DNA of 64,000 nt from a bacterium (GCA_021779915.1 JAJXZR010000029.1:12495-76494), one strand, 5' to 3'. Shown: positions 10,001 to 58,266, counted from the stretch's first letter. A program made the numbers and translations. Notes: a model not told the origin generated them from the letters alone.

Positions 10001-10110
10001 TTAAAATAAATAAAAAGCCAGAAAAATTCGACCAGTACTTATTTATGAGTTAGAAATTTTTAAACTGGTTCCTTAAAAATTTGATTGCTTCAAATGAAAG
10101 GAGGAAGGAA

Positions 10111-18038: not shown

Positions 18039-18152
18039 AATGACGAATGACGAATATCGAATATCGAATGACGAACCAATAATAGAAGATATTTTTTGCC
18101 ATTTTATATTTGGATTTGATTCGTCATTCGTCATTTGGAATTTGTCATTTTA
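18039..18152. repeat. TGACGAA-heptad palindromic element (T1) between convergent stop codons
   Basis: atgacgaatgacgaatatcgaatatcgaatgacgaa ... ttcgtcattcgtcatttggaatttgtcatt. Confidence 0.7.
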
Positions 18153-18154
18153 TC

Positions 18155-22711: not shown

Positions 22712-23263
22712 ATGAGTTTTGATAAGGGAAAACTTTTCATTATTACCGGAGCAGACGGATCCGGAAAAACGAAGGTGATTGAAGATCTGGAAAAGATTAA
22801 GTCTTTTTATTTGGTAAATTACATTACCACTGCTTCTCAAAGCGAAAAAGGAGTAGTTCCGGTCAGTTGGGATAATTTTCAATCATTCGCAGAGAACGAC
22901 GGTTTTGTTCTTTCTTTCAAAAAAAGAAATGCGATGACAGGAGTCACTCATGAGGAGATTAAAAAGGCCGAAGCAAGCGGTCAACCGATCGTTTGGGAGA
23001 TTGATATCCAGTGGATTGAAGATATTAGAAACGAACATCCGGAAGCGACTACAATTCTCGTAAATGGACTGGACGCCGAAGGATTTTATCAGCACTATGA
23101 AAGCAAAGGGAGCGCCGTACCCACTCTTACGGCAATCAAAGCTCAAAGAGCTGAGCATCTGCACGAATGGGGCAGAGGACAAGTAGATTACATCGTAGAA
23201 AATAAATTTGGAGAAAGCGCCAAAGCAGCAGAAGAAGTGAAAAAGATAATGGAAGGAGGATAA
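22712..23263 (+). CDS. guanylate kinase-like P-loop nucleotide kinase
   Basis: GADGSGKT P-loop and a C-terminal VDYIVENKF...EEVKKIM segment like Gmk. Confidence 0.45.
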   Translation: MSFDKGKLFIITGADGSGKTKVIEDLEKIKSFYLVNYITTASQSEKGVVPVSWDNFQSFAENDGFVLSFKKRNAMTGVTHEEIKKAEASGQPIVWEIDIQWIEDIRNEHPEATTILVNGLDAEGFYQHYESKGSAVPTLTAIKAQRAEHLHEWGRGQVDYIVENKFGESAKAAEEVKKIMEGG

Positions 23264-23392
23264 AAAATGACGAATGACAAATGTCGAATGACGAATTAAT
23301 GGCAAAATCCAAATATCAAAAAATTTTGTCATTTGGTATTTGAAATTTATCGTTTTATTAGAAATTAGGTGAATTAGGTTAATTAGAAATTT
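23264..23392. repeat. TGACGAA-heptad element (T2) with an ATTAGAAATTAGGTGAATTAG right terminus
   Basis: aatgacgaatgacaaatgtcgaatgacgaatt ... ttttgtcatttgg ... ttagaaattaggtgaattaggttaattagaa. Confidence 0.6.
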
Positions 23393-27600: not shown

Positions 27601-27659
27601 TCCGCATCGCCGACGGAGAAACCAGTCTGGCCGAAGCAGCGAGATTGACAGAGCTATAA
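24624..27659 (+). CDS. tandem-fused double GspE/PilB-family ATPase (T2SSE_N domain plus two complete ATPase cores)
   Basis: two Walker A motifs GPTGSGKTTTLY at about aa 312 and 754, two Walker B DPDxIxxGEIRDEET boxes, two His boxes GHLVLSTLHTN, two tetracysteine motifs. Confidence 0.8.
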   Translation: MSLSKKVSGGKQQDFEEIALRDTTRRLSRASEEEQAAIRAAGSGLPYLDLNIFPVGAETLSILPEEVARLGEITVIQKAGREIKVGVFDPNNKTTQEVLEKLEKDEGYRIKLYIVSRTSLKRTWDRYKHINLASSLEDMMLTLSGKDLEKFENDIKELVDLKKRIRELPTTEVLNVIIAGAIKMDASDIHTEPQKDDVRIRYRLDGVLHDIVHIPYNYYPYVLSRVKMLSGLKLNIKDRSQDGRFSIKTNKYEIDVRISILPGNYGENIVMRLLNQNETGFTLEDLGLRGRAAEQLAIQMAKPNGMILNTGPTGSGKTTTLYACIRKLNSPDTKIITIEDPIEYRLAGVSQTQVHKERGYDFANGLRAIVRQDPDVILVGEIRDEETGDIAVHASLTGHLVLSTLHTNSAAGAIPRLIDLGIRPSLITPSINCIIAQRLVRKLCPFCREEYVPAQETLESMSRFLSIISPKARVEVPKNITTLYRATGCPKCHGLGYKGRIGIFEIFEVTPSIEKLVLEMAPASDLLAASMEEGMVTMLQDGILKAAEGMTSMEEVERVTGSGQYLQEIYEKIMVQLLSLQLKITAKQGEEVVGCGYEAKNIADYIQKASNKDILNYIVAGGLSFDAGDIHMEPQGDRIKIRYRIDGILEDITDIKASDYLPVLSQIKLLAGLKTDSHAAVQDSRFGISLETPIRDIPNKQIDVRVSIITGGYGETVVMRLLHKSAQALEVEKIGFRPQLLDKLLREIEKPNGMILNTGPTGSGKTTTLYSLLNRLNKPEVKIITVEDPIEYRLAGILQTQVSVDEGYNFADALRALLRQNPDIMMIGEIRDEETGKISIQASLTGHLVLSTLHTNNAVASIQRMINMNIDPTDIATATNAMMAQRLVRKLCPVCKKKVPITPDNKKRLEEIIAGIHPSTGISIPSNTVDFLYEPVGCSECKNIGFKGRFPVAELMLMTPTLEEMVAHFAITSEIEKQAIQEGMLTMTQDAALRIADGETSLAEAARLTEL

Positions 27660-27702: not shown

Positions 27703-27844
27703 GTGTCATCCCGGGCTTGACCCGGGATCCAGTTAGACTAACAGAATGTTATTTTAACGTGTATTTGTAAAAAACTAAACAAAAGAACGTTTTGTTAGAC
27801 TAACACTATTTTCCTGGATCCCGGCTCAGAGGCCGGGATGACAC
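27703..27844. repeat. MITE-like element, hairpin-TIR family, short subtype (H6)
   Basis: GTGTCATCCCGGGCTTGACCCGGGATCCAG ... CTGGATCCCGGCTCAGAGGCCGGGATGACAC; internal ttagactaaca modules. Confidence 0.75.
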
Positions 27845-27894: not shown

Positions 27895-30795
27895 ATGTTT
27901 AAAAACAAAAAAACTACAAAAAATCAAAAAATACTGATTATTTCTTTGGTTTTGTTTGTTTTGCTTGTTTCTGTTTTTCTCTGTCTTAATGTGGCAAAAA
28001 AAACCGCTTTAAGAAATGAAGTGACTAGTAAGTTGGAGCTTCAGCATCAAATATCAAAGAATTTAGCGGGAATAACTGAAACTTATAGTTATAATGCCTA
28101 TACAAGCGGAGTACCTATGCATACTGTCTATGAAGATGAGAATTATTTAGGCATTCCGACTGGTGTAAAATCAGATTTTTTGATTATCCCAGATGGCGCA
28201 CAATTGCTTCAGGATTTGGGATATTCAAAATCCGTTTTGGGAAACAATTATCGTACTATGAATGAGGGAAAAGACGTTATTTTTTCATCAAATGCATGGG
28301 ATTATGTCACAAACAAAGAGAGTGGTGAATACACGGGATATAGATTAAGAGATTCCGGGCTGTTTATTCCGTTTGAGGGACTGGATTCGCGGACAACTTG
28401 GGAAAAAACCGCACCCGAATTTTTGGGAGGAAAAACCGCTAGAGAGAAACTTGATGAATTGCAAGCAAGTAACTCTCCAGAGAAAGTCCAATCTCTAAAA
28501 AAAGAACTAACCCCTGGTAGCATTGGAGATGGAAATGGTAATGTTATTCTTGGCACACCTGGTGTTCCTGGTAGTGCTTCAGGAGATACAAATGGGATTA
28601 CAGAAGTAGTCGGTCCAGACAAGCAGACACACAAACTTGATGAGAATGGCAATCCAGTGGTTTTGAACCCGAATACCAATAAATGGGAACCAGACACCAC
28701 TCCCGATGCAACGATTTCTCCATCTAACCAAAAAGATTCAAACAACCAAAATCCGAATCCGGGAAATATGCAGGCAAGTTCTGATCTGAGTGACCAGCAG
28801 GTCGCTTCTGATGCTTATCCTGCCAACGGGTTTCCAACACCTGGTCCAGACAATTCTTTATTATCCACTGCTAAGAAACAAGAAGCGGAGCAGAGGTACC
28901 AAGAAGCTTTGGACAAATATAATAAAGGAGAACTCTCTGCCGACGATTTTTCCTTGGAAAAAGCGCTTTACAGAGGATCATTTATAGAGCCTAAAACTGA
29001 CGAATTAAAACAATTAGAAAAAAACACTTTGGATAGTGCTAATGCTGTTTACAATAATTTTGCTAATTTGTATCCAGAAAGAGCAAAAGAAATACTTGCG
29101 GAGGAAGAAGCGAAAAAAACATATTCGAAGGATGGTAATTCAGGTAATAATCCTCCTTCAGATAATTCTTCCCCGTCTCTCGGAAAATCTGTAGGGGAAT
29201 CTTGGATTAATCCTCCTGCACCCAAAGACATGGCAACTCTGGATGATGCCACAAACAGGTTACTGGGATCGGATGGCATAACAAAAGAAGCGGTAAAAAA
29301 TGCACTTGAACTGTCCAAAAATTACGATAGTTTAGATGATAAACAAAAGGCTTTAGTGGATTCGGTAAACGATTTTATTTCCTATGGTAAGAAAACCACG
29401 GAAAAAGAGCTCGAACAACCTCAATTAAATGTCCTTGAACCTTCTCTTACTGGCAATAAAGTTCGGGAAGAAATGAATGCTTGGAATAAACTGGATGAGG
29501 AACGAACAAAAGCTGGTTTTCCAGATACCACCTCAATTACTCCTTCGAATGACTTTGATAAAGAAGGAGGTACTCTTGAACCCTTTAATGGGGAAGCGAA
29601 ATGGAACGTTGACCCTTCTAAGTTGAATCCGCCAAGCCCTTCTGCCATGGAAGCTTATCAAACTTTGAATGATTTTTCCCAAAATGGTACAGACCCCAGA
29701 AGTTGGTCGGAATATCTTAATCCGCTTGGTCCATCTTTACAGGAAAAATTAAATGATTTACAAAAAACAGCTAGTCTTACTCCCGAGGTTAAGCAATTTG
29801 GTGGCATCGACTTAACTAAAGGGGACGTTTCAGAACCTGTAAAAAAATTGGACGACTATTTTAACAACATGCAAGATCCCCGCAGTTTGTCTGAAAGATT
29901 GAACCCTTTTGGCCCAACAATTGATGAAAAAATAAACTCCTTGGAAAATCAGATTTATGAGGATGAAAGCAAAAAGAAACAAATTTTAAACGGAGCGGAG
30001 TTTAATTACCAAGACGCTCTTTATAAATACGCGAATGGCGAAATTTCTGAGGAAGAAAAAAATAAGGCACTAGAAAAATTTCAGGAGGAAACAGATAAAT
30101 ATTTAAAAGAAACGGCTGTAATTTCTCAAACCACTTCACCAGAAACACTGCCACAAAGCAATTTTGATTTTAATTCTGACAACTCCAATAGTTCACCTGC
30201 CGACAAGGGAAGTGATCGATCAGAGGGACAAAATGTTCAAACCACCGGGGACAGAACGGGGAGTGGGACGACTACTTCAAATTTTTGGGATAGGAATGAA
30301 AATCAATATTCTGGAGAAAATAATTCTGCGGGGGCAAATGAGGTTAAGAATGATAACAGTAGTCAAACACAAACTGTATCCACAGAACCTTATAATTTTA
30401 AAGATAATTTTTCTGCCGGAAACGGGAGTCAGGAGGAACCTTTTGCTGGTTGGACAAACAAAAATATTGCTGAAGCCTTCTCCTATGATGAAAAAACGGG
30501 GGAATTAAAATTAAACGAAGACTGGAAAGAACAGACGGGGCTTCCCGGAGGAGAATATCTTATTATTCCGCCAAGCAAAGCAGAGATCATAAAAGGTCTT
30601 TTTGAAGAAAATAAAATAGATTCACGAACTAAAGATGCTCTTGATAAAAAAAATGAAGCGGGAACACTGAAAAAAGAAATGCCAGAGAATCAAGATGTAT
30701 ACGATCTAAAAAAACAAGAGACTACTGAAGGAAAACCCAACAGCGACAAGTACCGAGAAATGAAAGCAGAAGAGATTCTGAAAACAAGTCAGTAA
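27895..30795 (+). CDS. large membrane-anchored extracellular protein with low-complexity regions and internal repeats
   Basis: N-terminal TM anchor; repeated block DPRSWSEYLNPLGPSLQEKLNDLQK / DPRSLSERLNPFGPTIDEKINSLEN; S/N/G/D-rich segments. Confidence 0.5.
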   Translation: MFKNKKTTKNQKILIISLVLFVLLVSVFLCLNVAKKTALRNEVTSKLELQHQISKNLAGITETYSYNAYTSGVPMHTVYEDENYLGIPTGVKSDFLIIPDGAQLLQDLGYSKSVLGNNYRTMNEGKDVIFSSNAWDYVTNKESGEYTGYRLRDSGLFIPFEGLDSRTTWEKTAPEFLGGKTAREKLDELQASNSPEKVQSLKKELTPGSIGDGNGNVILGTPGVPGSASGDTNGITEVVGPDKQTHKLDENGNPVVLNPNTNKWEPDTTPDATISPSNQKDSNNQNPNPGNMQASSDLSDQQVASDAYPANGFPTPGPDNSLLSTAKKQEAEQRYQEALDKYNKGELSADDFSLEKALYRGSFIEPKTDELKQLEKNTLDSANAVYNNFANLYPERAKEILAEEEAKKTYSKDGNSGNNPPSDNSSPSLGKSVGESWINPPAPKDMATLDDATNRLLGSDGITKEAVKNALELSKNYDSLDDKQKALVDSVNDFISYGKKTTEKELEQPQLNVLEPSLTGNKVREEMNAWNKLDEERTKAGFPDTTSITPSNDFDKEGGTLEPFNGEAKWNVDPSKLNPPSPSAMEAYQTLNDFSQNGTDPRSWSEYLNPLGPSLQEKLNDLQKTASLTPEVKQFGGIDLTKGDVSEPVKKLDDYFNNMQDPRSLSERLNPFGPTIDEKINSLENQIYEDESKKKQILNGAEFNYQDALYKYANGEISEEEKNKALEKFQEETDKYLKETAVISQTTSPETLPQSNFDFNSDNSNSSPADKGSDRSEGQNVQTTGDRTGSGTTTSNFWDRNENQYSGENNSAGANEVKNDNSSQTQTVSTEPYNFKDNFSAGNGSQEEPFAGWTNKNIAEAFSYDEKTGELKLNEDWKEQTGLPGGEYLIIPPSKAEIIKGLFEENKIDSRTKDALDKKNEAGTLKKEMPENQDVYDLKKQETTEGKPNSDKYREMKAEEILKTSQ

Positions 30796-30796
30796 A

Positions 30797-30914
30797 ATAA
30801 ATGACGAAGTTCGAATGACGAATGACGAATTGTGGTGTTCACTATCCTCACAATCAATCGTCGCCTTCGGTGACACCTTAATTTGTCATTCGTCATTCGA
30901 ACTTCGTCATTTAT
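30797..30914. repeat. TGACGAA-heptad palindromic element (T3) between convergent stop codons
   Basis: aatgacgaagttcgaatgacgaatgacgaatt ... aatttgtcattcgtcattcgaacttcgtcattt; nearly perfect inverted halves. Confidence 0.75.
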
Positions 30915-31621
30915 TGAAACAGCCCTTCATTAAATATCAGATTTATAAGGGTGGCTCTGGCTGGGGCGACTCCCCAGACTTCATACGAACCACCTAATTG
31001 ATTCAAATTAACGTCTCCTCCAATAATATTAGCAAAAACTGCTGCTTCTATTTTGGGAGGAGTTCCCCAAGTGCAGTTTCCTTCTAGCATTCCCTTAACT
31101 GTGCCTTGGCAGTCTCCACCCTGCTGTTTGCCCAGTCCTTCAAAAAGAAAGGGGATTCCAAATTGCAGATTTTGTTTGGCAATTCCTCCAGCATTGTCAA
31201 GAGCCGCTACGGCTAGTCCTCCCGCAGGAGCGCTCGCAAGCGTCGCTGGAGTACCAAAACTTCCATAGGTGAGAAGTTCGTTACGATACTGATCGACCAA
31301 AGTACTCCAAGCATTTTGGTTGACATCTTCAATTTGTTTGAGAAGTGTTTGAACATCACTAACAAAATGACCTCCCATGGATTGCATGCCGGCATGCCCC
31401 TGAAAAACAAACTGCAGTTTTTCCGGTACTTGGTTCTGAGATACCCGAGACTGAGGGTCTTGATAAGAGTCGGGAGCACTGGCTTGTCCCGCTCCAACAT
31501 TAATATTTCCACTAGGACCAAAAAGCCCGCCACCAGGAGAAAGATTGGCAGCACTGGCTACATTAAAAATGGTGATGGGAAACAAAATTGTAAGAGCTGA
31601 AATAAGAAATGTTTTTTTCAT
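30911..31621 (-). CDS. secreted hypothetical protein (signal peptide, Gly-rich)
   Basis: N-terminal signal peptide MKKTFLISALTILFPITIFNVASA. Confidence 0.45.
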   Translation of the reverse strand: MKKTFLISALTILFPITIFNVASAANLSPGGGLFGPSGNINVGAGQASAPDSYQDPQSRVSQNQVPEKLQFVFQGHAGMQSMGGHFVSDVQTLLKQIEDVNQNAWSTLVDQYRNELLTYGSFGTPATLASAPAGGLAVAALDNAGGIAKQNLQFGIPFLFEGLGKQQGGDCQGTVKGMLEGNCTWGTPPKIEAAVFANIIGGDVNLNQLGGSYEVWGVAPARATLINLIFNEGLFQ

Positions 31622-31625
31622 CAGT

Positions 31626-32702
31626 TTATTGAATTGATTTTTTTACTTCTCCTGAAAAAGCGTCAAGCTCCGCATTGATTTTCTCAGCCCGACCGGCAGC
31701 AAGGAACGATCGGAAATAATCACCTTCCTGAATGTTATCAAAAACGATTCCCAGAGATTTAACAATATGGAGAACTTTTGTATGAAGGTTTTTTAAATCA
31801 GGATTTATTGGCATCAAGGTTAACTCGTTATAAGAACTGTCTATCTCTTTTTTCCAGATACTTGCTTTTTCCAAATCAATATCACTTTTTCTCATTTGGG
31901 AAAGGGAGTCGATTATTTTCTTAATTCCTCCTTCCAATGTATCGCCATCACTTATTAATCCGTTCTTTCTTAGCACACTCTTTACTTGTTCAAGATATTT
32001 TTTCGCATCTTTGTCTATTTTTTCATCCACTAAAATCTTGTTTTCATCAATACTGAAAGCAAAATCAAGACCCGTGCCCTTAAGAAGACTGGCAGTGAAA
32101 TCAGTGATTTCTGATTTCACTTTGTCTTGCACATCAGCAGGAACTGAATCATAAGAAACGGAATAAAGCTTATAGCTTGCTATGATATCGTCTACTTTGG
32201 AAGCTACTTTGTCGGTTAGACTACCGCTGGTTAAGGGGTCAGCATTTTGATTAAAATTGTCGATTACTAAGGTCGAATTAGCTTGGTTGTTATTCAAATT
32301 TCCGTTTTGATTATTATTTTGATTACTATTTTGGTTAGAATTATTGTTTGCATTATTATTTGCGTTATTATTGGTATTAGAAGCGGAATAGTGGTCGGAT
32401 GTTGCCGTTAATTTATCACTTGGCGCGGCAACGAGAGGGCTGTACCCGCCTTTCACTTCTTGACCATCCATAAATCCATCCCCGTCAGTATCAGGATTTT
32501 TGGGGTCAGTTCCCCATTTTTTTTCGTCCGCATCGGAAAGCCCGTCCTTATCTGAATCAACATTTGCATTGCTAGTATTGCTAACGGCACCAAAAAGGGT
32601 GGGGACAGGAACCTTCTCCTTGGATGAAGAAATCCTCCCTCCCAGTCCCCAGACTGCAAGGACTAAAAATAAAACTAATGCGATTATTCTGATTTTTTTC
32701 AT
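31626..32702 (-). CDS. secreted protein with thrombospondin-type-3-like calcium-binding Asp repeats and an Asn-rich linker
   Basis: signal peptide; DKDGLSDADE...DPKNPDTDGDGFMDGQE repeats; poly-N/NNQ tract. Confidence 0.5.
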   Translation of the reverse strand: MKKIRIIALVLFLVLAVWGLGGRISSSKEKVPVPTLFGAVSNTSNANVDSDKDGLSDADEKKWGTDPKNPDTDGDGFMDGQEVKGGYSPLVAAPSDKLTATSDHYSASNTNNNANNNANNNSNQNSNQNNNQNGNLNNNQANSTLVIDNFNQNADPLTSGSLTDKVASKVDDIIASYKLYSVSYDSVPADVQDKVKSEITDFTASLLKGTGLDFAFSIDENKILVDEKIDKDAKKYLEQVKSVLRKNGLISDGDTLEGGIKKIIDSLSQMRKSDIDLEKASIWKKEIDSSYNELTLMPINPDLKNLHTKVLHIVKSLGIVFDNIQEGDYFRSFLAAGRAEKINAELDAFSGEVKKSIQ

Positions 32703-32879
32703 TTATTTTGAAATAACCCAACAAAGAATTTTCCTATTTTTTAAATATAACACGATTTTTTTGGGAATAAAATCCAACTCAACACAACTCAACAAACTTG
32801 GCTTCGCACCTGGGCTAAGACTCATCAACTAGAGAGCCACTCATCAAAAATAATCATTGATATTCCATTTAAAATTAAA

Positions 32880-32906
32880 AAAACGCTCAGCTGAGCGTTT
32901 TTTTAA
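32880..32906. terminator. perfectly palindromic hairpin plus T-run downstream of tRNA-Tyr, potentially bidirectional
   Basis: AAAAACGCTCAGCTGAGCGTTTTTTT. Confidence 0.6.
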
Positions 32907-32916
32907 AATTTTTTTG

Positions 32917-32999
32917 TCCGAGGAGAGGGATTCGAACCCCCGTAGGGAAGACCCGACAGATTTACAGTCTGTTGCAATTGACCACTCTGCCACCCTCGG
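32917..32999 (-). tRNA. tRNA-Tyr (anticodon GTA), class II with long variable arm
   Basis: rc CCGAGGGTGGCAGAGTGGTCAATTGCA-ACAGA-CTGTAAA-TCTGT-CGGGTCTTCCCTACG-GGGGTTCGAATCCC...CTCGGA; anticodon loop ctGTAaa. Confidence 0.8.
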
Positions 33000-33019
33000 T
33001 AATTAACTTTTTAAATCCT

Positions 33020-33190
33020 ACACTAGTTCATCAAGTTTATCAAGTTACGCGAATTAGTTTAGAAGGTTTAGAAAGTTTTGAAAGTTTAGAAAGACAGAAT
33101 GGTGCTTTTTTATGAAAAATATTATAACCAAAAACTCTCTGACTTTCTAAACTTTCCTAACCTTCTAAACTTTCTAAACTAGCTTTCCTG
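33020..33190. repeat. composite palindromic repeat: CTTGATAAAC units upstream of tRNA-Tyr plus a GTTTAGAAAG palindrome
   Basis: rc of 33024-33049 reads taacttgataaacttgatgaactag; gtttagaaaggttt.../...aaactttctaaac inverted halves. Confidence 0.5.
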
Positions 33191-33268
33191 ATTTTCATTT
33201 TATCTTTTTTTTATAATTATTTTATCTCCACTCATTTATAAGGAAGGTATAATTATTAATTTTTCAAA

Positions 33269-33742
33269 ATGACTTTGAAAAAAAATATATCCTCCTTTTT
33301 AACTTTTTCTTTAATTTGGAAAATTATTTTTCCTCTTTTTTGTATTTCATCCGGGTTCTTGTCCGGATTTTTTTATAAACAGTATCTCGGAAAAGAAGAG
33401 TGCCTCAATCTTGCATTTTCCAACAATCAAGAAGCGATGAGTCAATCTCAAATAGAAGAAATCAGTCAACTTCTCAATCAAGGAAATGAGACGGGACCTC
33501 TGTCTCAAGAAAATTTAAACGCGAATCAAAATAATTCAAACGTGAATGCTAACCCACTCAAAGATACTCCTCAAGCCAATAATACTGGAACAGGCAAATT
33601 TGTTGGAAGCCAAAAAAGCGACAAATTTTATCCTATCGCCTGCCACTTCGCCAAAAGAATCAAGGAAGAAAACAAAGTCTGGTTTGCAAGTGTAGAAGAA
33701 GGCGAAAAAGCAGGAAGGAAGTTTGTGGAATGTAATAATTAA
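33269..33742 (+). CDS. secreted protein with a C-terminal Ada-type metal-binding-like domain
   Basis: signal/TM N-terminus; C-terminal F.V......YPIACHF......EN.VWFAS.EEGEKAGRKFVEC resembles the Ada_Zn_binding pattern. Confidence 0.3.
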   Translation: MTLKKNISSFLTFSLIWKIIFPLFCISSGFLSGFFYKQYLGKEECLNLAFSNNQEAMSQSQIEEISQLLNQGNETGPLSQENLNANQNNSNVNANPLKDTPQANNTGTGKFVGSQKSDKFYPIACHFAKRIKEENKVWFASVEEGEKAGRKFVECNN

Positions 33743-33780
33743 AAATTAAAAGTTAGAAATGCAAAAGAACAATTCAAATT
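33741..33780. repeat. short copy of the GCAAAAGAACA module (F3)
   Basis: aaaagttagaaatgcaaaagaacaattcaaatt. Confidence 0.3.
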
Positions 33781-33789
33781 ATTTCTTTC

Positions 33790-33961
33790 GTGTCACCCTA
33801 ACTCCACCTGTCATTCCCGCGAAGGCGGGAATCCAGGAAGATTTTATTAAATTAATAGAATGTTATTTTAGTTATTTTCTTAACTATAGAACCCAAACAA
33901 TCATTCTTTTAGTCTAATAAAGTATTAGTTTACTGGATTCCCGCCTTCGCGGGAATGACAC
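33790..33961. repeat. MITE-like element, hairpin-TIR family, short subtype (H7)
   Basis: GTGTCA...TGTCATTCCCGCGAAGGCGGGAATCCAGG ... CTGGATTCCCGCCTTCGCGGGAATGACAC; compensatory hairpin variant. Confidence 0.75.
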
Positions 33962-33997
33962 GGACGAATTTATAACTTTTAATTTTTAACTAAAGAG

Positions 33998-36547
33998 ATG
34001 TCCACAAAACCATTTCTACCAATCCTAATATTCCTTCTTTTTCCTATTTTCGCCTTCGCCAGCCCCTCTGAAGAAACCATCAGTTCGAATCTTTCCATTA
34101 TCCAAAACACCATCTGGAGCGGAACAAAAATCATTAATGGAGCGAAAATTACGGTTGAAAACACAGCTACCCTCACCCTTGAGCCAGGAACAACGGTTAT
34201 TGGTTTAAATGGCGCGTCTATTTATATTAAAGGAAGGTTTATCGCGATTGGAGAAGAAAACCATAAGATCAGATTTACCTCTGACAAAGATAGGCAACAA
34301 AATTTTACTTTAACCTATTCTCTCAGTTCCATAGCGGGAAGCGAGGTTGAGATGAGAAATTTTATCTTGGAGGACGGAGGAGGAAACCAAGATCTAGCCT
34401 CTCTTCCAGCCCTTACCCTTAAGGGAAAAGGAACCCTTTCCGATTGTATTATCAGAAGAAACAGAACCACGGGGGTTCGTTTTTGGGACAGTGTTGATAA
34501 TGAATCAATAGAAAATTGCGAAATTTACGAAAACGAGAATTTAGCCATTGAAAACAAAACCACTAATCTCTTGAAGGCCGAGAATAATTGGTGGGGATCG
34601 AAAGACGGCCCCAGTTATTTTGTCAGCGCTCCCCGTGCCTACATCTGGGGCAATATTGATTTTGATCCTTGGCAACAAAAAGGTCCTATTCCTATTATTC
34701 TGGTACCGGGATTTGGGGGAAGCTTCAGTTTTAAGCTATTTAGTAATTCGGCAAAAAACGACTGGTGGATGACGCCTCTAGGGACTGGTTCTTACCGCTA
34801 TTTTGCAAAAGCTCTAGCTTCCAAAAATTACACTTTGGGGCAAGATTATTTCTGGGCCTTTTACGATTGGAGAAAGCTTAATGAAGAAAGTGCCCAAAAC
34901 TATTTAAAAAAAACTATTGAGGAAGCCAAACAAAAAAGTGACCACAACGAAGTTAATCTTGTTGCTCACAGCATGGGAGGCCTTTTAGCCAGAAGCTATA
35001 TTCAAAGCGATAATTTTGAGGATGATGTTGATCGTTTGGTAACTGCCGGAACTCCTCACCTGGGGTCTAGTGAAACTTATTCTCTTTGGGAAGGAGGAGA
35101 GCTCCTCGGTGCTAAAAAAATATTACTTCCTTACCTCTGGTACCTGGAAATTCTAAATCGAAATTATTCCAACATTGACACGCTTCGAAATGAATTTCCT
35201 TCTCTTGCCGAAATGCTTCCCACTTATGATTATCTCTACCAAAAAGATTCAGGAGAAACTATTTCTTACGCTTCTCAAAAATATCAAAATTCGTTTTTAG
35301 AAAGCATAAATTCCGATCTTAAAAACCTCAAAAGAAAAGTTTGGCTGGGAGTTGTTGCAGGAACAGGAGAAAAGACTTTGGAAAAAATCCCTGTAAAAGC
35401 TTGCACAGAAAATTCCAATATTTTTGAAGATGGAGTTCCGGATCCTCTTAACTCAATTCCTGATTCACTTTTCGGTGACGGAACCGTTACTCAAAAAAGC
35501 GCTACTCTAAATAACCAATTAACTAACAATTCAATTACTATCCCCAGTTCCCATGGAGAACTTTTTCAAAAAGGTCAGAAAAATTTGTTTGACGAATTAA
35601 ATATTCGCCCTTCCACTTTTTCCCTTGCCGATATTTTAGATGACTTTTTATTCAGCTCCTCCGGGCCGATTGACATTTCAATTGAAAACGAAGCCGGAAA
35701 AATTTTGAACACAGACGCAAAAGAAATTAATGAAAGCGAGTACGACGAGGAAGAAATTGAAGGAAAAAAGCTAGTTTTTGCCAGTTTTCCAATCAATTAC
35801 TCGACCTCTTTGCAAAAGCAGAGTCTAAAAATTACTGTTTTGGGAAAGGACGAAGGAACAGCCAAGCTGGCTTTTTGGCATTTTTCTTCTAATGAAGATT
35901 TTGATAAAGTTGAAAAAGAAATCGGCACAGACGAAAATTCTAAAGTCATTTACACCGTTTCTCTGGAAAAAGGCTTGGATGGAAAACCAAAAATAAATAT
36001 TACTGATACTGATTCCTTAAGCTTTATTAAGACAAGAATACCTCTTCCTAACGACAATTATTTGAATTGGCAATATCTGCTTCCGGAAGCATACATCTGG
36101 AGCGGGGAAGACGACGAAAAAATCGAAAGTTCGAAGGTAAGCTATTCTCTTGATCAAAAGGACGTTAGTGGAAGCCTAGATCTTTCTTCTTTGCCACTTG
36201 GCCACCATGAGATAAAAGTCCGAGGAAGTTGGTTAAAAAAAGGTGTCTCTCAAAATGACGAAAAAGAAATTCCCTTCGTTATCAGCACTTCCTTAAAAAG
36301 TTTTTCTACTCTCCTAGACAGATTTTACAAAGAAGGAAAAATCAACAGCTGGAAAGACAGAAGCAATCTAACTAATTTATCTTCTTTAGCTTATCAAGAT
36401 TTATCGGAAGGAGATCTGAATGGGGCAAAAAACAAGATAAGAGAAATAAAAAACACTCTTTTAGAAAAAGAAGATTTGTTTAAGGACAAAAAAGACAAGG
36501 AAATAATGAATAATTCTATTGCTTATTTGGAAAATAATCCAAATTAA
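33998..36547 (+). CDS. secreted protein: N-terminal right-handed beta-helix (pectin-lyase-like) domain plus alpha/beta-hydrolase lipase/esterase domain
   Basis: signal peptide; NxxxGxxI beta-helix repeats; lipase nucleophile elbow VNLVAHSMGGLLARSY (GxSxG). Confidence 0.6.
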   Translation: MSTKPFLPILIFLLFPIFAFASPSEETISSNLSIIQNTIWSGTKIINGAKITVENTATLTLEPGTTVIGLNGASIYIKGRFIAIGEENHKIRFTSDKDRQQNFTLTYSLSSIAGSEVEMRNFILEDGGGNQDLASLPALTLKGKGTLSDCIIRRNRTTGVRFWDSVDNESIENCEIYENENLAIENKTTNLLKAENNWWGSKDGPSYFVSAPRAYIWGNIDFDPWQQKGPIPIILVPGFGGSFSFKLFSNSAKNDWWMTPLGTGSYRYFAKALASKNYTLGQDYFWAFYDWRKLNEESAQNYLKKTIEEAKQKSDHNEVNLVAHSMGGLLARSYIQSDNFEDDVDRLVTAGTPHLGSSETYSLWEGGELLGAKKILLPYLWYLEILNRNYSNIDTLRNEFPSLAEMLPTYDYLYQKDSGETISYASQKYQNSFLESINSDLKNLKRKVWLGVVAGTGEKTLEKIPVKACTENSNIFEDGVPDPLNSIPDSLFGDGTVTQKSATLNNQLTNNSITIPSSHGELFQKGQKNLFDELNIRPSTFSLADILDDFLFSSSGPIDISIENEAGKILNTDAKEINESEYDEEEIEGKKLVFASFPINYSTSLQKQSLKITVLGKDEGTAKLAFWHFSSNEDFDKVEKEIGTDENSKVIYTVSLEKGLDGKPKINITDTDSLSFIKTRIPLPNDNYLNWQYLLPEAYIWSGEDDEKIESSKVSYSLDQKDVSGSLDLSSLPLGHHEIKVRGSWLKKGVSQNDEKEIPFVISTSLKSFSTLLDRFYKEGKINSWKDRSNLTNLSSLAYQDLSEGDLNGAKNKIREIKNTLLEKEDLFKDKKDKEIMNNSIAYLENNPN

Positions 36548-36792
36548 GGTACTTTGTCCACACCTCCTTCGTTCCAGGGATGGCATCTAGAAATTCTTTT
36601 GACAGTCAACCAGGAGCCTTTTGCTAAACCATATTTTTTAAGCGCCTGAACGGAATATTCCGAACAAGTGGGATGAAAAATACAAACCCTAAACCCCATA
36701 CTTTTCCCCCAGAAACTTTGGTCAGGAGAAAGGGTTTTTTGATAGATGCGGATGAGGAAAATGAGGGGGAGGGTAGTAATTTTTTGGAACAT
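36544..36792 (-). CDS. yidD: membrane protein insertion efficiency factor YidD
   Basis: 82 aa; conserved CxxxPTCSxY and CHPW motifs. Confidence 0.8.
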   Translation of the reverse strand: MFQKITTLPLIFLIRIYQKTLSPDQSFWGKSMGFRVCIFHPTCSEYSVQALKKYGLAKGSWLTVKRISRCHPWNEGGVDKVP

Positions 36793-36850
36793 AGGGTTTT
36801 GAGTTTAAAATAGCAGAATTTACAAATTTCAATTTCTTATTATATTTTGT

Positions 36851-37095
36851 GTGTCATCCCGGGCTTGACCCGGGATCCAAGAGAATAGAAAATTGCTCTA
36901 ATTAACCTAATTATACCCACCGCCTAAGGCGGGATCCCGCTTTGCGGTGATAATTGACCTAAAAAAGCACCAAACAATAAAAAATAAATCTTGAAAATTG
37001 GTTCTTGGCATTTTATTTAGAACAATTAGATCAATTAGGGTAATTAGAATAATTGGCGAGTCTAACTAGATCCCGGGTCAAGCCCGGGATGACAC
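36851..37095. repeat. MITE-like element, hairpin-TIR family, long subtype (H8), inverted relative to H1
   Basis: GTGTCATCCCGGGCTTGACCCGGGATCCAAG ... CTAGATCCCGGGTCAAGCCCGGGATGACAC; internal aattagggtaattagaataatt module. Confidence 0.75.
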
Positions 37096-37108
37096 TTGGT
37101 TACAAATT

Positions 37109-37768
37109 TTACTTGTCCATTTGTTTCCTCCTCCATTTCTCAATCTTCTTCGGGTCCCCGCACAAAAGCACACTCGGTACCTTCCAGCCTTTATAAACTT
37201 CGGGTCTAGTATATTGCGGGTACTCCGTTTCATTAGTATTATAAGATTCCTCTTTCAAAGATTCTTCATTCCCTAGCACTCCAGGGATTAATCTGGTGAC
37301 GGAATCAAGAATGGTGGCCGCTCCCAGTTCTCCCCCGCTTAGAATATACTTTCCCATAGATATTTCTTCATCAGCTATATGATTTATCACCCTTTCGTCG
37401 ACCCCTTCATATCTGCCACAAACAAAAATTATTTGCTTATATTTTTTAGATAATTCAAGGGACTTCTTTTGGTTAAAAATCTTTCCTTTGGCGGCAAGTA
37501 AAATTATTCTAATTTCATTTCTTTTATATGGACTTTTTTTCAAAATTTCCTCAACACATTTTTCAACCGGCTCAACTTTCATGAGCATTCCCACCCCTCC
37601 TCCATACGGGACATCATCTGTCGTCCTATGTTTATCCTTGGCATAATCCCGAAGGTCATGCACAAAAATTTCAATTAGCTTCTTTGCTTTAGCCCTTTTA
37701 ATTTGGGCTTCAGCAAAATAGGAATCGAGAATGTGAGGGAATATGGTGATTATGTCAAATCGCAACAT
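37109..37768 (-). CDS. trmD: tRNA (guanine37-N1)-methyltransferase
   Basis: 219 aa SPOUT-fold protein with TrmD motifs (DIITIFP, YGGG.GM). Confidence 0.9.
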   Translation of the reverse strand: MLRFDIITIFPHILDSYFAEAQIKRAKAKKLIEIFVHDLRDYAKDKHRTTDDVPYGGGVGMLMKVEPVEKCVEEILKKSPYKRNEIRIILLAAKGKIFNQKKSLELSKKYKQIIFVCGRYEGVDERVINHIADEEISMGKYILSGGELGAATILDSVTRLIPGVLGNEESLKEESYNTNETEYPQYTRPEVYKGWKVPSVLLCGDPKKIEKWRRKQMDK

Positions 37769-37810
37769 TAGTTTATCAAGTTTATAAAGTTATAAAGTTT
37801 ATCAAGTATT
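37769..37810 (-). promoter_or_regulatory. CTTGATAAAC direct-repeat motif abutting the trmD start codon
   Basis: rc: CTTGATAAACTTTATAACTTTATAAACTTGATAAACTA-ATG. Confidence 0.5.
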
Positions 37811-37818
37811 CTAAAAGG

Positions 37819-37926
37819 AAAATATTTTGTTTCAAATTGGGAAACTGTGTTTTAAAAACTATGATTTTCTTATAGGAAATCCCCTAGTTTTTAAAACACA
37901 GTTTCCCAATTTGAAACAAAATATTT
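37819..37926. repeat. 42-bp perfect inverted repeat separated by about 35 bp in the divergent trmD / 37993 intergenic region
   Basis: aaaatattttgtttcaaattgggaaactgtgttttaaaaact ... agtttttaaaacacagtttcccaatttgaaacaaaatatttt. Confidence 0.7.
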
Positions 37927-37992
37927 TTTGAAGATTAAACTTTATCAACTAGTTAATTCATAGTATAAAATTATAAAGCTTTAAATTCAATT

Positions 37993-39174
37993 ATGCCAAG
38001 CGGATCGGAACCAGGTTTCCTCGAAATTCTGTGGCAGGTTATTATTTTTGGTTGGTGGATTTTTCTTCCAATTGGTCTTTATTCGATTTTTAGACCTCTT
38101 TGGGAAAAGTATGTTTCAGGAGTTTATGCCAGAGAAAGTTTAAATACAATTCTACTTAAAATTAAAATTCCGCAGGATCAATCTGCTAATCCAAAGGCAA
38201 TGGAAAGCGTTCTTATAGGACTAACTGGAACTGGCAGGACAATAACTCTTTATAACGCCATAACCACAGGGGCTTTTCAAGATTATTTCTCTCTCGAGAT
38301 TGCCAGCCGGGAGGGAGAAACTTCATTTTATATTGCTACGCCAAAAAGATCTGAGGATTTAGTGAAAAAACTTTTTTACAGTCAATTCCCCGACATTGAA
38401 ATTATGGAAGCTCCTGAAGATTACACCAAAGCCATTCCCGATACTATTCCCGATGAAAACTGGGGACTTTGGGGAGGAAAATATATTTTGGAAAAAAACC
38501 AGGCTCAACCAATCAATACTTATCCTTCTTTTGAAGACAAGTTCACCGGTGAAATGGTAGACCCGCTCTCTGGGCTCCTAGAGGCAATGGGAAGCCTTGG
38601 ACCTGGAGAGCATCTATGGTTTCAAATTCAAATCGGTCTCCCTCCTGCCGAATGGAGAAAAGAAGGCAAAAAAGAAATAGAGAAGATTTTAAAAAAATAC
38701 AATTTGATGCCTGCTTCTGAAAGTAGCGAAGAAGTAATGATGAGAGTACTTCCTCACCATGAACAAGAAACCATCAAAGCTATCAGCTACAAAATGTCAA
38801 AACCCGCCTTCAGCACTCAAATAATCTTTGCTTATATAGCGAGGCAAGAAGTTTTTAATCCTATCTTAGCGGCAAATATTGGTGGAGCCATGAAGCAATT
38901 TGAATCGGGAGATTTGAATGCTTTTATGCTCGACAAATATTACACTCTTTCCACTTACTTTTTACTCGCGAAAGGAAGAAAAGAATATCGAGCTAGAAGA
39001 TTAGTTGACATGCTTCGAGATAGGGATATGCAAGGGGTGTGTCCCGTCCTAAATGTTGAAGAATTGGCCACTTTATTCCATTTCCCAACTAAGATGATGA
39101 GAGTTCCAAGCCTTCCAAGGCTTGATAATAAACGAGCACCTGCTCCACCTAATTTGCCCTTGGAGGAAAAATAA
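37993..39174 (+). CDS. hypothetical membrane-anchored protein
   Basis: N-terminal TM hairpin followed by a 330 aa soluble domain; no recognisable motif. Confidence 0.4.
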   Translation: MPSGSEPGFLEILWQVIIFGWWIFLPIGLYSIFRPLWEKYVSGVYARESLNTILLKIKIPQDQSANPKAMESVLIGLTGTGRTITLYNAITTGAFQDYFSLEIASREGETSFYIATPKRSEDLVKKLFYSQFPDIEIMEAPEDYTKAIPDTIPDENWGLWGGKYILEKNQAQPINTYPSFEDKFTGEMVDPLSGLLEAMGSLGPGEHLWFQIQIGLPPAEWRKEGKKEIEKILKKYNLMPASESSEEVMMRVLPHHEQETIKAISYKMSKPAFSTQIIFAYIARQEVFNPILAANIGGAMKQFESGDLNAFMLDKYYTLSTYFLLAKGRKEYRARRLVDMLRDRDMQGVCPVLNVEELATLFHFPTKMMRVPSLPRLDNKRAPAPPNLPLEEK

Positions 39175-39226
39175 AGATACAGTAATTTTAGATGGTATAA
39201 TTAAATAAAAATAACAAAATAAAAAA

Positions 39227-42200
39227 ATGAAAAAAGACCAATTATTTCGACTTGCAAAGAAAAGTTCAGTGTCTTTTTTAGCTTTGTCGTTTTTGTTTCA
39301 GATGGGAAGTCTACAGAGTCTTATTCAAGCAGAGGTTTCCCATGCCGATTTTAGTCGGGGAGATATGTCAAAGTTATTTAAATCTACCCCTAGAAATAAC
39401 CAAGTTCAAACCAAAATTAACAAATCAAGTAATCAAAAATCAGATTTCGTTCCAGGAGAAGTTTTAGTTAAGTTTAAGGAAAATAAAATCAGTTTAAAAA
39501 GTTTTTTGGGAGGAAAAAATAATAAAAAATTGAATATCGAAAATTCCTTGGCAGGAAAAAGTATTAATAGCGTTGCAAATAAATATAATCTGGAAAAAAA
39601 AGATTATCTACCAAAAGATAATTCTTCTCTGATGAAAATTAAAGACTCCGATAGCATCGAACAGAAAATAGAAAAATTAAAAAAAGATCCAACAATTGAA
39701 TCGGCTCAACCTAATTATAAATATCATTTAAATTCCATTACTCCTGGTAACGATACTTATTATGTAGATCAGTGGGCACTTCATAACACTGGACAAACAG
39801 TTGATGGCGTAAAAGGAACGGCGGATGCTGACATTGACGCTCCAGAAGCTTGGGCCACTTCTGAAGGAAACAACAGCATAATTGCTGCAGTAATTGACAC
39901 AGGAGTAGCCTATGATCACCCAGATCTTTTGGCTAATATGTGGGATGGGTCAAGTTGTAAAGATGAAAATAATGCGACAATCCCGGGAGGATGTACCTAT
40001 GGTTATGATTATGACAGCAACGACACCAATCCAGCTCCAGATGGAGATTCTCTTACCACTGGCGCCTATTCTCACGGCACTCACGTAGCTGGAATTATCG
40101 CGGCGGCCGACAACACAAACGGGATTGTTGGGGTGGCACCTCACACCAAAATTATGGCAGTAAAAACTGCTTTGTTGACTACTTCCGAAATTGTTAAAGC
40201 CATTGCTTTTGCTGAAAACAATGGTGCAAAAATAATTAACGCCAGCTGGGGGGGCTCTGAAAACGACACTCTTATGAAAGAGGCTATTAGGGGGTTTAGT
40301 GGTCTATTCATCGCAGCCGCAGGAAACTCAGGAGATGATAATGATGGAGCTGATCCTTTGTATCCTTGTTCTTTTGATTTAGATAATATTGTTTGTGTAG
40401 CCGCTACTGATCAAAATGACAAACTAACAAGTTGGTCCAGCTATGGGGCGAATACCGTTGATGTTGGAGCACCTGGAGATAACATTATTAGTGATGTCGC
40501 AGAAAGAAAAACAGTAAATCAAGACTTTGAAACCACTACTGTTGGTCAAATTCCTACTGGTTTTTCTAAAACCGGTAATTGGCAAGTAAAAACTGCTCCG
40601 GCAGAATTGAATTGGGGAACCACTAAGGTTCTTTTTGCGGATAACTCCTTTCCTTACGCCGATAATGCCAATTCAACTTTTGCCAACACCACTGCCTATA
40701 ATTTGGATGGTTCCACTACAGCAGAACTCAGTTTTTGGACAGCCTGTGATACTGAATACGACAGTCGCAGTTCTGCTTGGACAGATTATTTGGCCTTGGA
40801 GTTAAGCAGTGACGGCACAAATTTTTCTGAAGTAGCCAGGTGGGATAAAGGATCTCTTTCTGGTGGGGGAATTGGCTATTCAACTGGATTTTATGATGAT
40901 TTTATTCCTTCGGGATATTTAACTTCTAATTTTAAATTACGTTTTAGATGGGTCACTAACGGAACGAATAACTATTACGGTGGTTGTCTTATTGATGATT
41001 TAAAGCTAGAAACTTACGGAAATAGTATTAACGACGAATATGATTATTGGTCCGGCACTTCTATGGCAACTCCTCAAGTTGTAGGACTTACTAGTTTGGT
41101 TTGGGAAACAAATGGTAGCTTGACAAATAGCCAAGTAAAAAATTTAATCTTAAAATCTGGTGATCCCCTCGCTGATCTTGACGGAACAACCGTTTCGGGA
41201 AAAAGAATTAATGCCTATAAAGCACTCACAACCAAACGGATTGACACTTTCGATTTTAATAGCCTAGATCCAACCGTTTCTGGGGATATTGATGAAACTA
41301 ACCACACAATAAGTCTTGTGGTTCCTTATGGAACAAACATTACTTCTCTTGTTCCCACAATCAGTTACACAGGAGGAACAATGAGTCCGGCAACGGGAGT
41401 AGCTCAAAATTTTACCAGTCCCAAAACTTATACTGTTACTGCTGCTGACGGTACAACTCAAAATTACACAGTTACCGTAACCGTCAGTACCGAACTAACA
41501 AAACAAATTACTGCTTTTGATTTTAATGATTTGGGTGTTTCTGGAATTATTAATGAAGGAAATAACACAATCTCTCTTACCGTACCTCACGATACTAATG
41601 TAACCTCTCTTTCCCCAACAATCACCTTCACGGGAGAGTCTTTAAGTCCTTTGAGTAATATTCCTCAGAATTTTACTAATCCCGTAACTTATACTATTAC
41701 CGACTCAGACGGTTTTACCAGAAATTATACCGTTACAGTGACAGTTTTAAGAAATTCTGAAAAACAAATTACTGCTTTTGATTTTAATGATTTTTCCTAC
41801 CCTGTTATTGGATCGATCGACGAAGAAAATAAAACTATTAATTTAACTGTTGCCAACGGCACTAATTTAACTTATCTTACTCCAACAATCAGTTATTCTG
41901 GTTCTTCCATTAGTCCTGGTTCGGAAGTCAGTCAAGACTTCACAAGTCCCATAACCTACACAATAACAGCAGAGGATGGATCGACAACTTCCTACACGGT
42001 AACAGTCGACAAATCAACCGATCCTTACATTTCTAATATTCAAAGAATTAACAAGAAAAAAACTAGAATTATTATTTCCGATTTAACTCTTTCAACTCAA
42101 AAAAAATTAAAACCGACCACTGCCTTTTTAAATGGCAATAGAGTAAGAATTTCTGGGGTCAAAAATTCCGGAAATAGAACTTTTTTAATAGCGAATTTGA

Positions 42201-42322
42201 GCTACTCAAAATGGCCACGAGGACCATATGAGTTTTCTTTTAGTTACAAAATTTCAACCGGTAAAAAATCTTATAGAGTAGAAACTTTTAATCCTTCAGA
42301 AAATGATTTCCAAATAAATTAA
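39227..42322 (+). CDS. secreted subtilisin-like serine protease (peptidase S8) with N-terminal inhibitor-I9-like region and three C-terminal about 80 aa Ig-like repeats
   Basis: signal peptide; catalytic triad contexts VIDTGV (D), HGTHVAGII (H), GTSMATPQV (S); threefold repeat FDFN..TISL.VP.GTN.TSL.PTI...G...SP......FT.P.TYT.T..DG.T.NYTVTV. Confidence 0.85.
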   Translation: MKKDQLFRLAKKSSVSFLALSFLFQMGSLQSLIQAEVSHADFSRGDMSKLFKSTPRNNQVQTKINKSSNQKSDFVPGEVLVKFKENKISLKSFLGGKNNKKLNIENSLAGKSINSVANKYNLEKKDYLPKDNSSLMKIKDSDSIEQKIEKLKKDPTIESAQPNYKYHLNSITPGNDTYYVDQWALHNTGQTVDGVKGTADADIDAPEAWATSEGNNSIIAAVIDTGVAYDHPDLLANMWDGSSCKDENNATIPGGCTYGYDYDSNDTNPAPDGDSLTTGAYSHGTHVAGIIAAADNTNGIVGVAPHTKIMAVKTALLTTSEIVKAIAFAENNGAKIINASWGGSENDTLMKEAIRGFSGLFIAAAGNSGDDNDGADPLYPCSFDLDNIVCVAATDQNDKLTSWSSYGANTVDVGAPGDNIISDVAERKTVNQDFETTTVGQIPTGFSKTGNWQVKTAPAELNWGTTKVLFADNSFPYADNANSTFANTTAYNLDGSTTAELSFWTACDTEYDSRSSAWTDYLALELSSDGTNFSEVARWDKGSLSGGGIGYSTGFYDDFIPSGYLTSNFKLRFRWVTNGTNNYYGGCLIDDLKLETYGNSINDEYDYWSGTSMATPQVVGLTSLVWETNGSLTNSQVKNLILKSGDPLADLDGTTVSGKRINAYKALTTKRIDTFDFNSLDPTVSGDIDETNHTISLVVPYGTNITSLVPTISYTGGTMSPATGVAQNFTSPKTYTVTAADGTTQNYTVTVTVSTELTKQITAFDFNDLGVSGIINEGNNTISLTVPHDTNVTSLSPTITFTGESLSPLSNIPQNFTNPVTYTITDSDGFTRNYTVTVTVLRNSEKQITAFDFNDFSYPVIGSIDEENKTINLTVANGTNLTYLTPTISYSGSSISPGSEVSQDFTSPITYTITAEDGSTTSYTVTVDKSTDPYISNIQRINKKKTRIIISDLTLSTQKKLKPTTAFLNGNRVRISGVKNSGNRTFLIANLSYSKWPRGPYEFSFSYKISTGKKSYRVETFNPSENDFQIN

Positions 42323-44759: not shown

Positions 44760-44899
44760 GTGTCATCCCGGGCTTGACCCGGGATCCAGGAGAGTGGTAT
44801 TAGTCTAATAAAATGTTAGTTTGTTCAATCTCTTACAATGCACATTAAAATAACATTCTGTTAGTCTAACTGGATCCCGGGTCAAGCCCGGGATGACAC
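44760..44899. repeat. MITE-like element, hairpin-TIR family, short subtype (H9)
   Basis: GTGTCATCCCGGGCTTGACCCGGGATCCAGG ... CTGGATCCCGGGTCAAGCCCGGGATGACAC; nearly perfect. Confidence 0.8.
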
Positions 44900-58081: not shown

Positions 58082-58148
58082 TTAAGTTTTTTGCAATAAT
58101 TAAATCTACCATCCTGTTAACATAAAATATTTTTAATTCATCTACTAA

Positions 58149-58266
58149 AATGACTAATGACTAATATCGAATGACGAATCAATGACAAAGTCCTAATATC
58201 AAAAAATTTTGTTATTTGGATTTCGGATTTGGTTTGTTATTTGTCATTCGGAATTCGTCATTTGAT
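58149..58266. repeat. TGACGAA/TGACTAA-heptad palindromic element (T4) after the galU stop
   Basis: aatgactaatgactaatatcgaatgacgaatcaatgacaaag ... ttgtcattcggaattcgtcatttg. Confidence 0.65.

Follow-up and report, generated by a model that had tools for sequence, protein, structure and literature searches.

This locus raises the question of whether the secreted and surface proteins encoded close together at positions 27,895 to 42,322 of a 64,000-nucleotide stretch of bacterial DNA (JAJXZR010000029.1, 12495-76494; the whole stretch is called the window here) form a host-interaction locus. The original prediction had grouped six such proteins as plausible attachment and scavenging effectors of an episymbiont. 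They are named here by their length in amino acids (aa) as p966, p236, p358, p157, p849 and p1031, and open reading frame (ORF) listing and translation reproduced all six at exactly the predicted coordinates (Table 1). The region is locally enriched in secreted and bitopic proteins within the window; a coherent host-interaction locus, a genomic island or a single operon is not supported. The reading we prefer, to which we assign a probability of roughly 0.6, is a loose neighbourhood of exported hydrolases for lipid and peptide scavenging and of clade-specific envelope proteins.

Export signals were judged by hydropathy, AXA-type heuristics and the conservation of the N-terminus among orthologues. 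All six proteins, together with a seventh, p393, that we add to them, carry an N-terminal hydrophobic segment behind a short basic stretch (7 of 7), so that the predicted set of six signal- or anchor-bearing proteins within 15 kb stands and is extended by one. Cleaved-type Sec signal peptides are recognizable by appearance in p236 (..NVASA/A, the slash marking the presumed cleavage site) and p849 (..FAFA/S), p1031 has a shorter h-region (VSFLALSFLF) that ends in ..LIQA/E and is signal-peptide-like, and the N-termini of p966, p358, p157 and p393 resemble signal anchors. In orthologue alignments the hydrophobicity of the N-terminal segment is kept as its sequence drifts, which is as expected for export signals, and the seven proteins are very probably exported or membrane-anchored. 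When every plausible protein gene of the window was counted, polytopic membrane proteins being left out, secreted or bitopic products accounted for 7 of 11 genes in the 27.9-42.3 kb region versus 2 of 33 in the rest of the window (Fisher one-sided p = 2.5e-4).

Contigs of two NCBI metagenome-assembled genomes (MAGs), as well as ENA and Logan assemblies, match the window at 99.99% identity or more, a level that all other assemblies carrying the genes of the region also reach. Because TrmD, compared with a collection of species-representative genomes, finds its top match (65% identity) in a Candidatus Moraniibacteriota MAG and the homologues of p236 and p358 are labelled Moranbacteria by their database sources, we place the organism in the Moranbacteria lineage of the Patescibacteria, or Candidate Phyla Radiation (CPR). 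Relatives were compared by tblastn of the window proteins against seven loci (L004, L084, L086, L087, L093, L094 and L095); a TrmD-anchored scan of genome contigs returned mostly non-CPR genomes, and only L004 was informative. Identity to these relatives is 59-78% for p236 versus 63-67% for the housekeeping yardstick TrmD, and reaches 48-55% for p393, 36-61% for p358, 41-61% for p157 and 40-62% for p849. By this comparison the region mixes two strictly conserved two-gene modules (p358-p236 and p157-p849), one conserved membrane protein (p393) and two variable large proteins (p966 and p1031). Both pairs and p393 lie within ~8 kb in L086 and L087, and in the closest relative both pairs are likewise found within ~8 kb. 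Since their conservation is strict and their reading frames overlap or abut in relatives, p358-p236 and p157-p849 at least would be functional units. Among these relatives p966 and p1031 are variable, and the other four of the six proteins form clade-conserved pairs; with p236 conserved like TrmD, this is not the pattern that rapidly evolving effectors of host interaction would leave.

Within the region, it is the p358-p236 pair that lacks an explanation and holds the most interest. p236 (236 aa, 13.6% Gly, two invariant Cys, N-terminus MKK...NVASA/A) agrees with the description of a Gly-rich secreted protein, its Sec-type signal peptide being assigned by the heuristics above. Only 25 homologues were found among 5.8 billion proteins, all of the same length and 59-78% identical, an exhaustive profile search of 1.84 billion cluster representatives returned its own cluster alone, and searches of PDB, Pfam, NCBIfam and PHROGs were all empty. 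Judged by sequence identity, p236 is as conserved as TrmD and restricted to one clade, and such strong purifying selection would favour a structural or conserved-target role over that of an arms-race effector. Its partner p358 matches TSP3_bac (PF18884) with 30 bits against a cut-off of 25, in two repeats followed by a poly-Asn tract, as anticipated from the thrombospondin type 3 (TSP3)-like Ca-binding repeats and Asn tract first noticed in the sequence. Residues D49, D51, D53, D71, D73, G74 and D75 of the DxDxDG Ca-binding motifs are invariant in 33 sequences, the poly-Asn linker is variable, and the C-terminal helical-bundle domain (aa ~160-358) is conserved. An AlphaFold2 (AF2) model has a predicted local distance difference test (pLDDT) score above 90 for aa 50-95 and 160-358; PHROGs gave no match for p358.

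In 6 of 6 relatives (L084, L086, L087, L093, L094 and L095) the p236 gene comes directly after the TSP3 gene, and in many cases the TSP3 stop codon overlaps the p236 start codon. Elsewhere, envelope proteins of the OmpA family and of the L,D-transpeptidase type carry TSP3 repeats, in CPR bacteria too, as do Myxococcus cohesion and gliding proteins; because of this distribution we regard p358-p236 as a clade-specific module that most likely forms an envelope or surface structure. The pair is a candidate for an envelope or contact structure that would define its lineage.

The second pair associates a predicted exported hydrolase, p849, with a small anchored protein, p157. p849 matches LCAT (PF02450) with 58.4 bits (cut-off 21), the profile being aligned only at positions 69-211 of 392, in its N-terminal half, and PGAP1 (PF07819) with 47.2 bits (cut-off 24.3). 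Its sole PDB relative is LPLA2 (group XV phospholipase A2; 4x90, E=5.6e-7), and PHROGs gave no match. The nucleophile elbow (GxSxG) reads AHSMG, or AYSLG or AHSLG in orthologues, with an invariant Ser. Across four orthologues (40-62% identical by tblastn; L004, L086, L087 and L095) this Ser is invariant, and so are a GD(G/D)(T/R)V motif and, ~25 residues after it, a His, in the order Ser-Asp-His. The corresponding motifs of p849 are GDGTV and SSH, and the GDGTV-type Asp motif resembles the GDDTV motif of LCAT. We infer rather than observe the triad, because its Asp and His were assigned by motif conservation and by likeness to LCAT motifs, and a PDB sequence search with the Asp/His segment alone gave no match. 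The N-terminal domain alone reaches 23.5 bits against Beta_helix (PF13229; E=4.6e-5, profile positions 8-155 of 158), just below the threshold of 25.9, and the same profile is matched by three of the four orthologues; a PDB sequence search with this domain gave no match, and the C-terminal ~290 aa alone had no Pfam match. Of the architecture attributed to the protein, the lipase fold is recovered, and the putative beta-helix has a score slightly short of its threshold. On these profile matches and motifs, p849 is most likely an exported phospholipase A or acyltransferase; acyltransferases are among the members of the LCAT family.

p157 lies directly upstream of p849 in L004, L086, L087 and L095. 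The family spans 130-157 aa and has an N-terminal transmembrane (TM) segment and a conserved C-terminal part of ~45 aa in which two Cys are kept. The Ada-type metal-binding-like domain (PF02805) previously suggested for p157 is not supported: Pfam gave no match even at E<=10, PDB gave none, NCBIfam returned only a non-significant hit (E=0.097) to the sunset-domain end of an L17 variant, and two conserved Cys compare with four metal ligands in the Zn domain. By analogy with other lipase partners, p157 could, speculatively, be a membrane-anchored helper of the lipase. One copy of the intergenic hairpins listed in Table 1 separates p157 from p849 in the window; in relatives these genes abut or overlap.

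The conserved membrane protein p393 has a weak DUF8128 annotation and matches phrog_5156 at E=3.5e-8; no literature on DUF8128 was found. It adjoins TrmD in L004, L086 and L087, and the p393-TrmD segment is inverted between relatives. p393 is a paralogue (25-27% identity) of the N-terminus of an 835-864-aa ATPase composed of DUF8128, DUF87 (HerA-like) and TrwB_AAD_bind. This ATPase is encoded in L086 (3955-6462), L093 (3385-5979) and L094 (166-2745), 3-8 kb upstream of the TSP3-p236 pair, and is not encoded in the window. A link between the pair and the ATPase was considered and rejected, given its absence from the window and intervening small genes that have no homologues here.

The two large proteins at the ends of the region vary among relatives. 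In p966, the predicted membrane anchor and repeats are both present, the TM segment (aa 13-31) being preceded by a Lys-rich N-terminus and the internal duplications being real against shuffled sequences, if short (38 aa, z=16; 21 aa, z=5). No Pfam, NCBIfam or PHROG family matches p966, and its N- and C-terminal parts alone are also without a Pfam match. A search of 5.8 billion proteins yielded P0027 as the sole homologue, a partial one that aligns to 24% of the query at 37% identity; it adjoins PolA and shares no context with p966. In the closest relative, identity to p966 is 59-60% over the C-terminal 180-196 aa, and the gene is again convergent with p236. The protein appears to be a fast-evolving near-orphan and probably forms an extended surface fibril.

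p1031 is, as described originally, an S8 protease with triple immunoglobulin (Ig)-like repeats. It matches Peptidase_S8 (PF00082) with 146.8 bits (cut-off 21.8) behind a fervidolysin-type prodomain, and DUF5018 with 111.9 bits (cut-off 38.2) in three tandem repeats of ~90 aa. The triad lies in canonical motifs and in canonical order (D224 in VIDTG, H283 in SHGTH and S612 in SGTSMATP), and the best solved relative is deseasin MCP-01 (3vv3, E=1.7e-48). An insert of ~180 aa and the C-terminus, each taken alone, had no Pfam match. L004, L086 and L087 lack the gene at the syntenic position, and a scan of JGI metagenomes returned four distant loci, the best at 35-39% identity, with no close orthologue. 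From these domains p1031 is probably a cell-associated protease supplying peptides.

Table 1. Genes of the region and intergenic elements of the window, with positions counted from the first letter of the window
Feature	Position	Strand	Description
p966	27895..30795	+	966 aa; predicted bitopic, TM aa 13-31; polar, low-complexity; short internal duplications
p236	30911..31621	-	predicted Sec-type signal peptide; Gly/Ala-rich; second gene of the p358-p236 pair
p358	31626..32702	-	predicted N-terminal anchor/signal segment, TSP3 x2, poly-Asn linker, helical bundle; first gene of the pair
Bidirectional terminator-like hairpin	32875-32906		beside tRNA-Tyr
tRNA-Tyr (GTA)	32916..32999	-	housekeeping gene inside the cluster
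p157	33269..33742	+	small, predicted N-terminally anchored protein; C-terminal Cys-containing domain of ~45 aa
Paired inverted hairpin element (GTCATTCCCGCGAAGGCGGGAATCCA, both orientations)	33810..33959	.	between p157 and p849; intergenic repeat family
p849	33998..36547	+	predicted signal peptide, beta-helix-like aa ~25-230, LCAT/LPLA2-type hydrolase aa ~231-560, C-terminal ~290 aa without family match
YidD (membrane protein insertion efficiency factor)	36544..36792	-	PF01809; housekeeping
TrmD tRNA (m1G37) methyltransferase	37109..37768	-	housekeeping; conservation yardstick
p393	37993..39174	+	393 aa; predicted N-terminal TM segment and DUF8128 domain
p1031	39227..42322	+	S8 subtilase; fervidolysin-type prodomain, ~180-aa insert, three DUF5018 Ig-like repeats, basic C-terminal ~90 aa
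Paired inverted hairpins	13787-57051 (span)		examples at 27705-27842, 33810-33959, 36853-37093 and 44762-44897
Second repeat family	18025-18153; 23252-23355; 30786-30912; 58135-58266; 59838-59973		the copy at 30786-30912 lies between p966 and p236

The GC content of the region (0.35-0.41 against ~0.37 for the window) is unremarkable, no mobility genes were found among the domain matches of the region, and the empty PHROGs searches for p966, p236, p358 and p849 give no indication of a phage origin. An Rfam scan of the window returned three tRNAs and nothing more. The paired hairpins (GTCATYCC-stem-loop-stem-GGRATCCA in both orientations, 60-200 nt apart) occur in 11 of the 31 intergenic gaps longer than 100 nt in the 64 kb and look like a repeat family of the repetitive extragenic palindrome (REP), bacterial interspersed mosaic element (BIME) or miniature inverted-repeat transposable element (MITE) type. 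A second family, made of ATGACGAAT/ATTCGTCAT-like units in inverted arrays, is found at five sites, where the genes on either side are convergent or adjacent. As both families are spread through the window, they would be a genome-wide feature and not the borders of an island. The repeats and the tRNA-Tyr that had been read as flanking several of the genes are thus both present, yet the former recur window-wide and the latter is internal to the region, not at its border. A 52-aa ORF (33759-33917, + strand; ..VIPAKAGIQ..) called as a gene in an NCBI MAG is a read-through of a palindromic element and almost certainly not a real gene.

Upstream of p966 are KsgA and a 1011-aa ORF (24624-27659, + strand) in which two complete PilB/GspE-type ATPase units (two T2SSE domains) are fused in tandem. 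The halves are 45% identical, and both retain the Walker A sequence GPTGSGKTTT and the CxxC..CxxC motif. The fusion is not an assembly artefact, because five contigs assembled independently all carry this ORF; PilB is a single unit in the relatives L011 and L089, and the window itself also encodes an ordinary PilB (11994-13775). A pseudo-hexamer of three fused dimers is possible. Just upstream of the ordinary PilB are two ORFs of 242 and 267 aa without a Pfam family (9215-9943 and 10081-10884, both + strand). Downstream of p1031 follow MiaA and then seryl-tRNA synthetase. The p1031 stop codon abuts the MiaA start codon (42322/42323) and a gap of 52 nt separates the end of p393 from the start of the protease gene, so the secreted protease may be co-transcribed with a tRNA-modification gene in a mixed operon structure.

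We propose that this Moranbacteria neighbourhood, enriched in Sec-exported and membrane-anchored proteins, would comprise three layers and no single functional unit. In the first, p849 would act on foreign membranes or lipid debris and free fatty acids and lysolipids, which would feed a cell that presumably cannot synthesize lipids itself, with p157 as its membrane-anchored partner in physical contact with it. The same layer would include p358, an anchored protein whose helical-bundle head follows Ca-binding TSP3 repeats and a flexible stalk of poly-Asn, and the ultra-conserved secreted Gly-rich p236, which would join and bind it in a clade-specific envelope or surface structure. The conserved DUF8128 membrane protein p393, beside TrmD, would form the second layer, and the lineage-variable p966 (a putative surface fibril) and p1031 (a putative peptide-supplying protease) the third. 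Most CPR bacteria have been argued to be unable to make fatty-acid lipids and to be lysolipid-rich, and they have been proposed to take lipids or lysolipids from other cells, for which a phospholipase A offers a plausible means (PMC7242380). Among the tools proposed for nutrient acquisition, a recent perspective names proteases, phospholipases and surface proteins (PMC11665869). p849 and the S8 protease bear on the question of how CPR/Patescibacteria come by lipids and amino acids (PMC11665869; PMC7242380); they match the published picture of lipid and peptide scavenging and are ordinary in kind. As a conserved enzyme of the LCAT/LPLA2 type that is predicted to be exported and whose nucleophile is intact, p849 is a concrete candidate maker of lysolipids and fatty acids from foreign membranes.

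How much of this arrangement belongs together can be judged from two opposite positions. A dedicated host-interaction locus or island, with six products acting jointly as attachment and scavenging effectors of an episymbiont, could account for the local enrichment of exported proteins (p=2.5e-4), for the predicted-exported hydrolases next to adhesion-type TSP3 domains, for the two conserved pairs found within ~8 kb of each other in the closest relative, L086 and L087, and for the variability of p966 and p1031, as is often seen in surface or host-range proteins; these elements of the original prediction stand. The locus as a unit does not, and we consider it distinctly unlikely: the genes lie on both strands, with tRNA-Tyr, YidD, TrmD and MiaA interleaved and terminator-like hairpins and palindromic elements intervening, there is neither a GC deviation nor a mobility gene, the repeats are genome-wide, purifying selection on p236 matches in strength that on TrmD, and in L084, L093 and L094 the p358-p236 pair sits among genes for sugar-nucleotide enzymes, the CCA-adding enzyme and FtsA. 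The evidence here has no direct bearing on a link of the region to a host or to an episymbiotic lifestyle, which could at most be inferred. At the other extreme, the grouping may be devoid of functional meaning, as ancestral gene order left in a compact genome whose genes code for membrane or exported proteins in about a fifth to a third of cases. The interleaved housekeeping genes, the unequal conservation and rearrangements such as the p393-TrmD inversion and an S8 gene present only here would all be accommodated; the enrichment within the window and the strict conservation of two gene pairs with overlapping or abutting frames would not, and we judge this explanation improbable.

A different partition of the same observations would have the conserved modules serve the cell's own envelope, with p358-p236 as a wall or surface-layer component, p849 remodelling the cell's own lipids (for example by LCAT-like transacylation of lysolipids) and the S8 protease processing its own surface proteins. 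Three points tell against this version: nothing in the data separates self from foreign substrates, peptidoglycan-binding, S-layer (SLH) and sortase motifs were not detected in domain scans, and the family is limited to one small clade, core envelope functions usually being broader. It gains from the very high conservation of p236 with its two invariant Cys, from the TSP3 repeats on OmpA-family and L,D-transpeptidase cell-wall proteins elsewhere, CPR included, from the acyltransferases of the LCAT family and the adjacent YidD, and from the cell-envelope polysaccharide genes and FtsA around the pair in relatives; we hold it to be tentative and rather unlikely. A bolder proposal makes p358 a Ca2+-dependent anchored stalk that presents or polymerises p236, an undescribed two-component apparatus of one Moranbacteria clade for host contact or permeabilisation, after which the LCAT-like lipase would harvest host lipids; this we regard as doubtful. 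The loose neighbourhood of scavenging hydrolases and envelope proteins, which we prefer, is itself weakened on several counts. The export signals have heuristic support only, the Beta_helix score of p849 falls just under its cut-off and its Asp/His segment drew a blank in PDB, the AF2 model of p236 (pLDDT 44 from a 21-sequence alignment) is unusable, and the head of p358 matches only generic helix bundles. The envelope assignment of p358-p236 draws on export signals, TSP3 repeats, co-occurrence and conservation and on nothing further, and the location of the pair in L084, L093 and L094 means that it is not grouped with the lipase in every relative.

Taken as a cluster, the region is of a kind that CPR genomes generally contain, and it defines no new system; its parts can each be set beside a described one. 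Like deseasin MCP-01 and fervidolysin, p1031 combines the D/H/S catalytic motifs with a fervidolysin-type prodomain and C-terminal accessory beta-domains. It differs from them in the ~180-aa insert of no known family between the oxyanion Asn region and the catalytic Ser, and in accessory domains that consist of three DUF5018 repeats, which are otherwise characteristic of surface proteins in Bacteroidota, and a basic C-terminal tail. p849 shares with LCAT and LPLA2 a core at aa ~231-420 with the nucleophile motif AHSMG; a GDGTV-type motif and a His downstream of it are conserved in all orthologues. It differs in that it is bacterial, has a predicted signal peptide, and carries a beta-helix-like domain of ~200 aa before the core and ~290 aa without a family after it. 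Pseudomonas and Burkholderia encode lipases in gene pairs with a lipase-specific foldase (Lif); p157 is similarly a small, N-terminally anchored protein encoded next to a secreted lipase in a conserved pair, but it has no similarity to Lif (no Pfam match) and is encoded upstream, not downstream, of the lipase. Finally, p358 resembles bacterial TSP3 surface proteins (Myxococcus MtsD and CglD, OmpA-family and L,D-transpeptidase proteins) in having two DxDxDG repeats just outside the membrane anchor. The part held in common is only the ~45-aa repeat region, and the helical bundle and the obligatory partner p236 are unique to ~30 Moranbacteria sequences.

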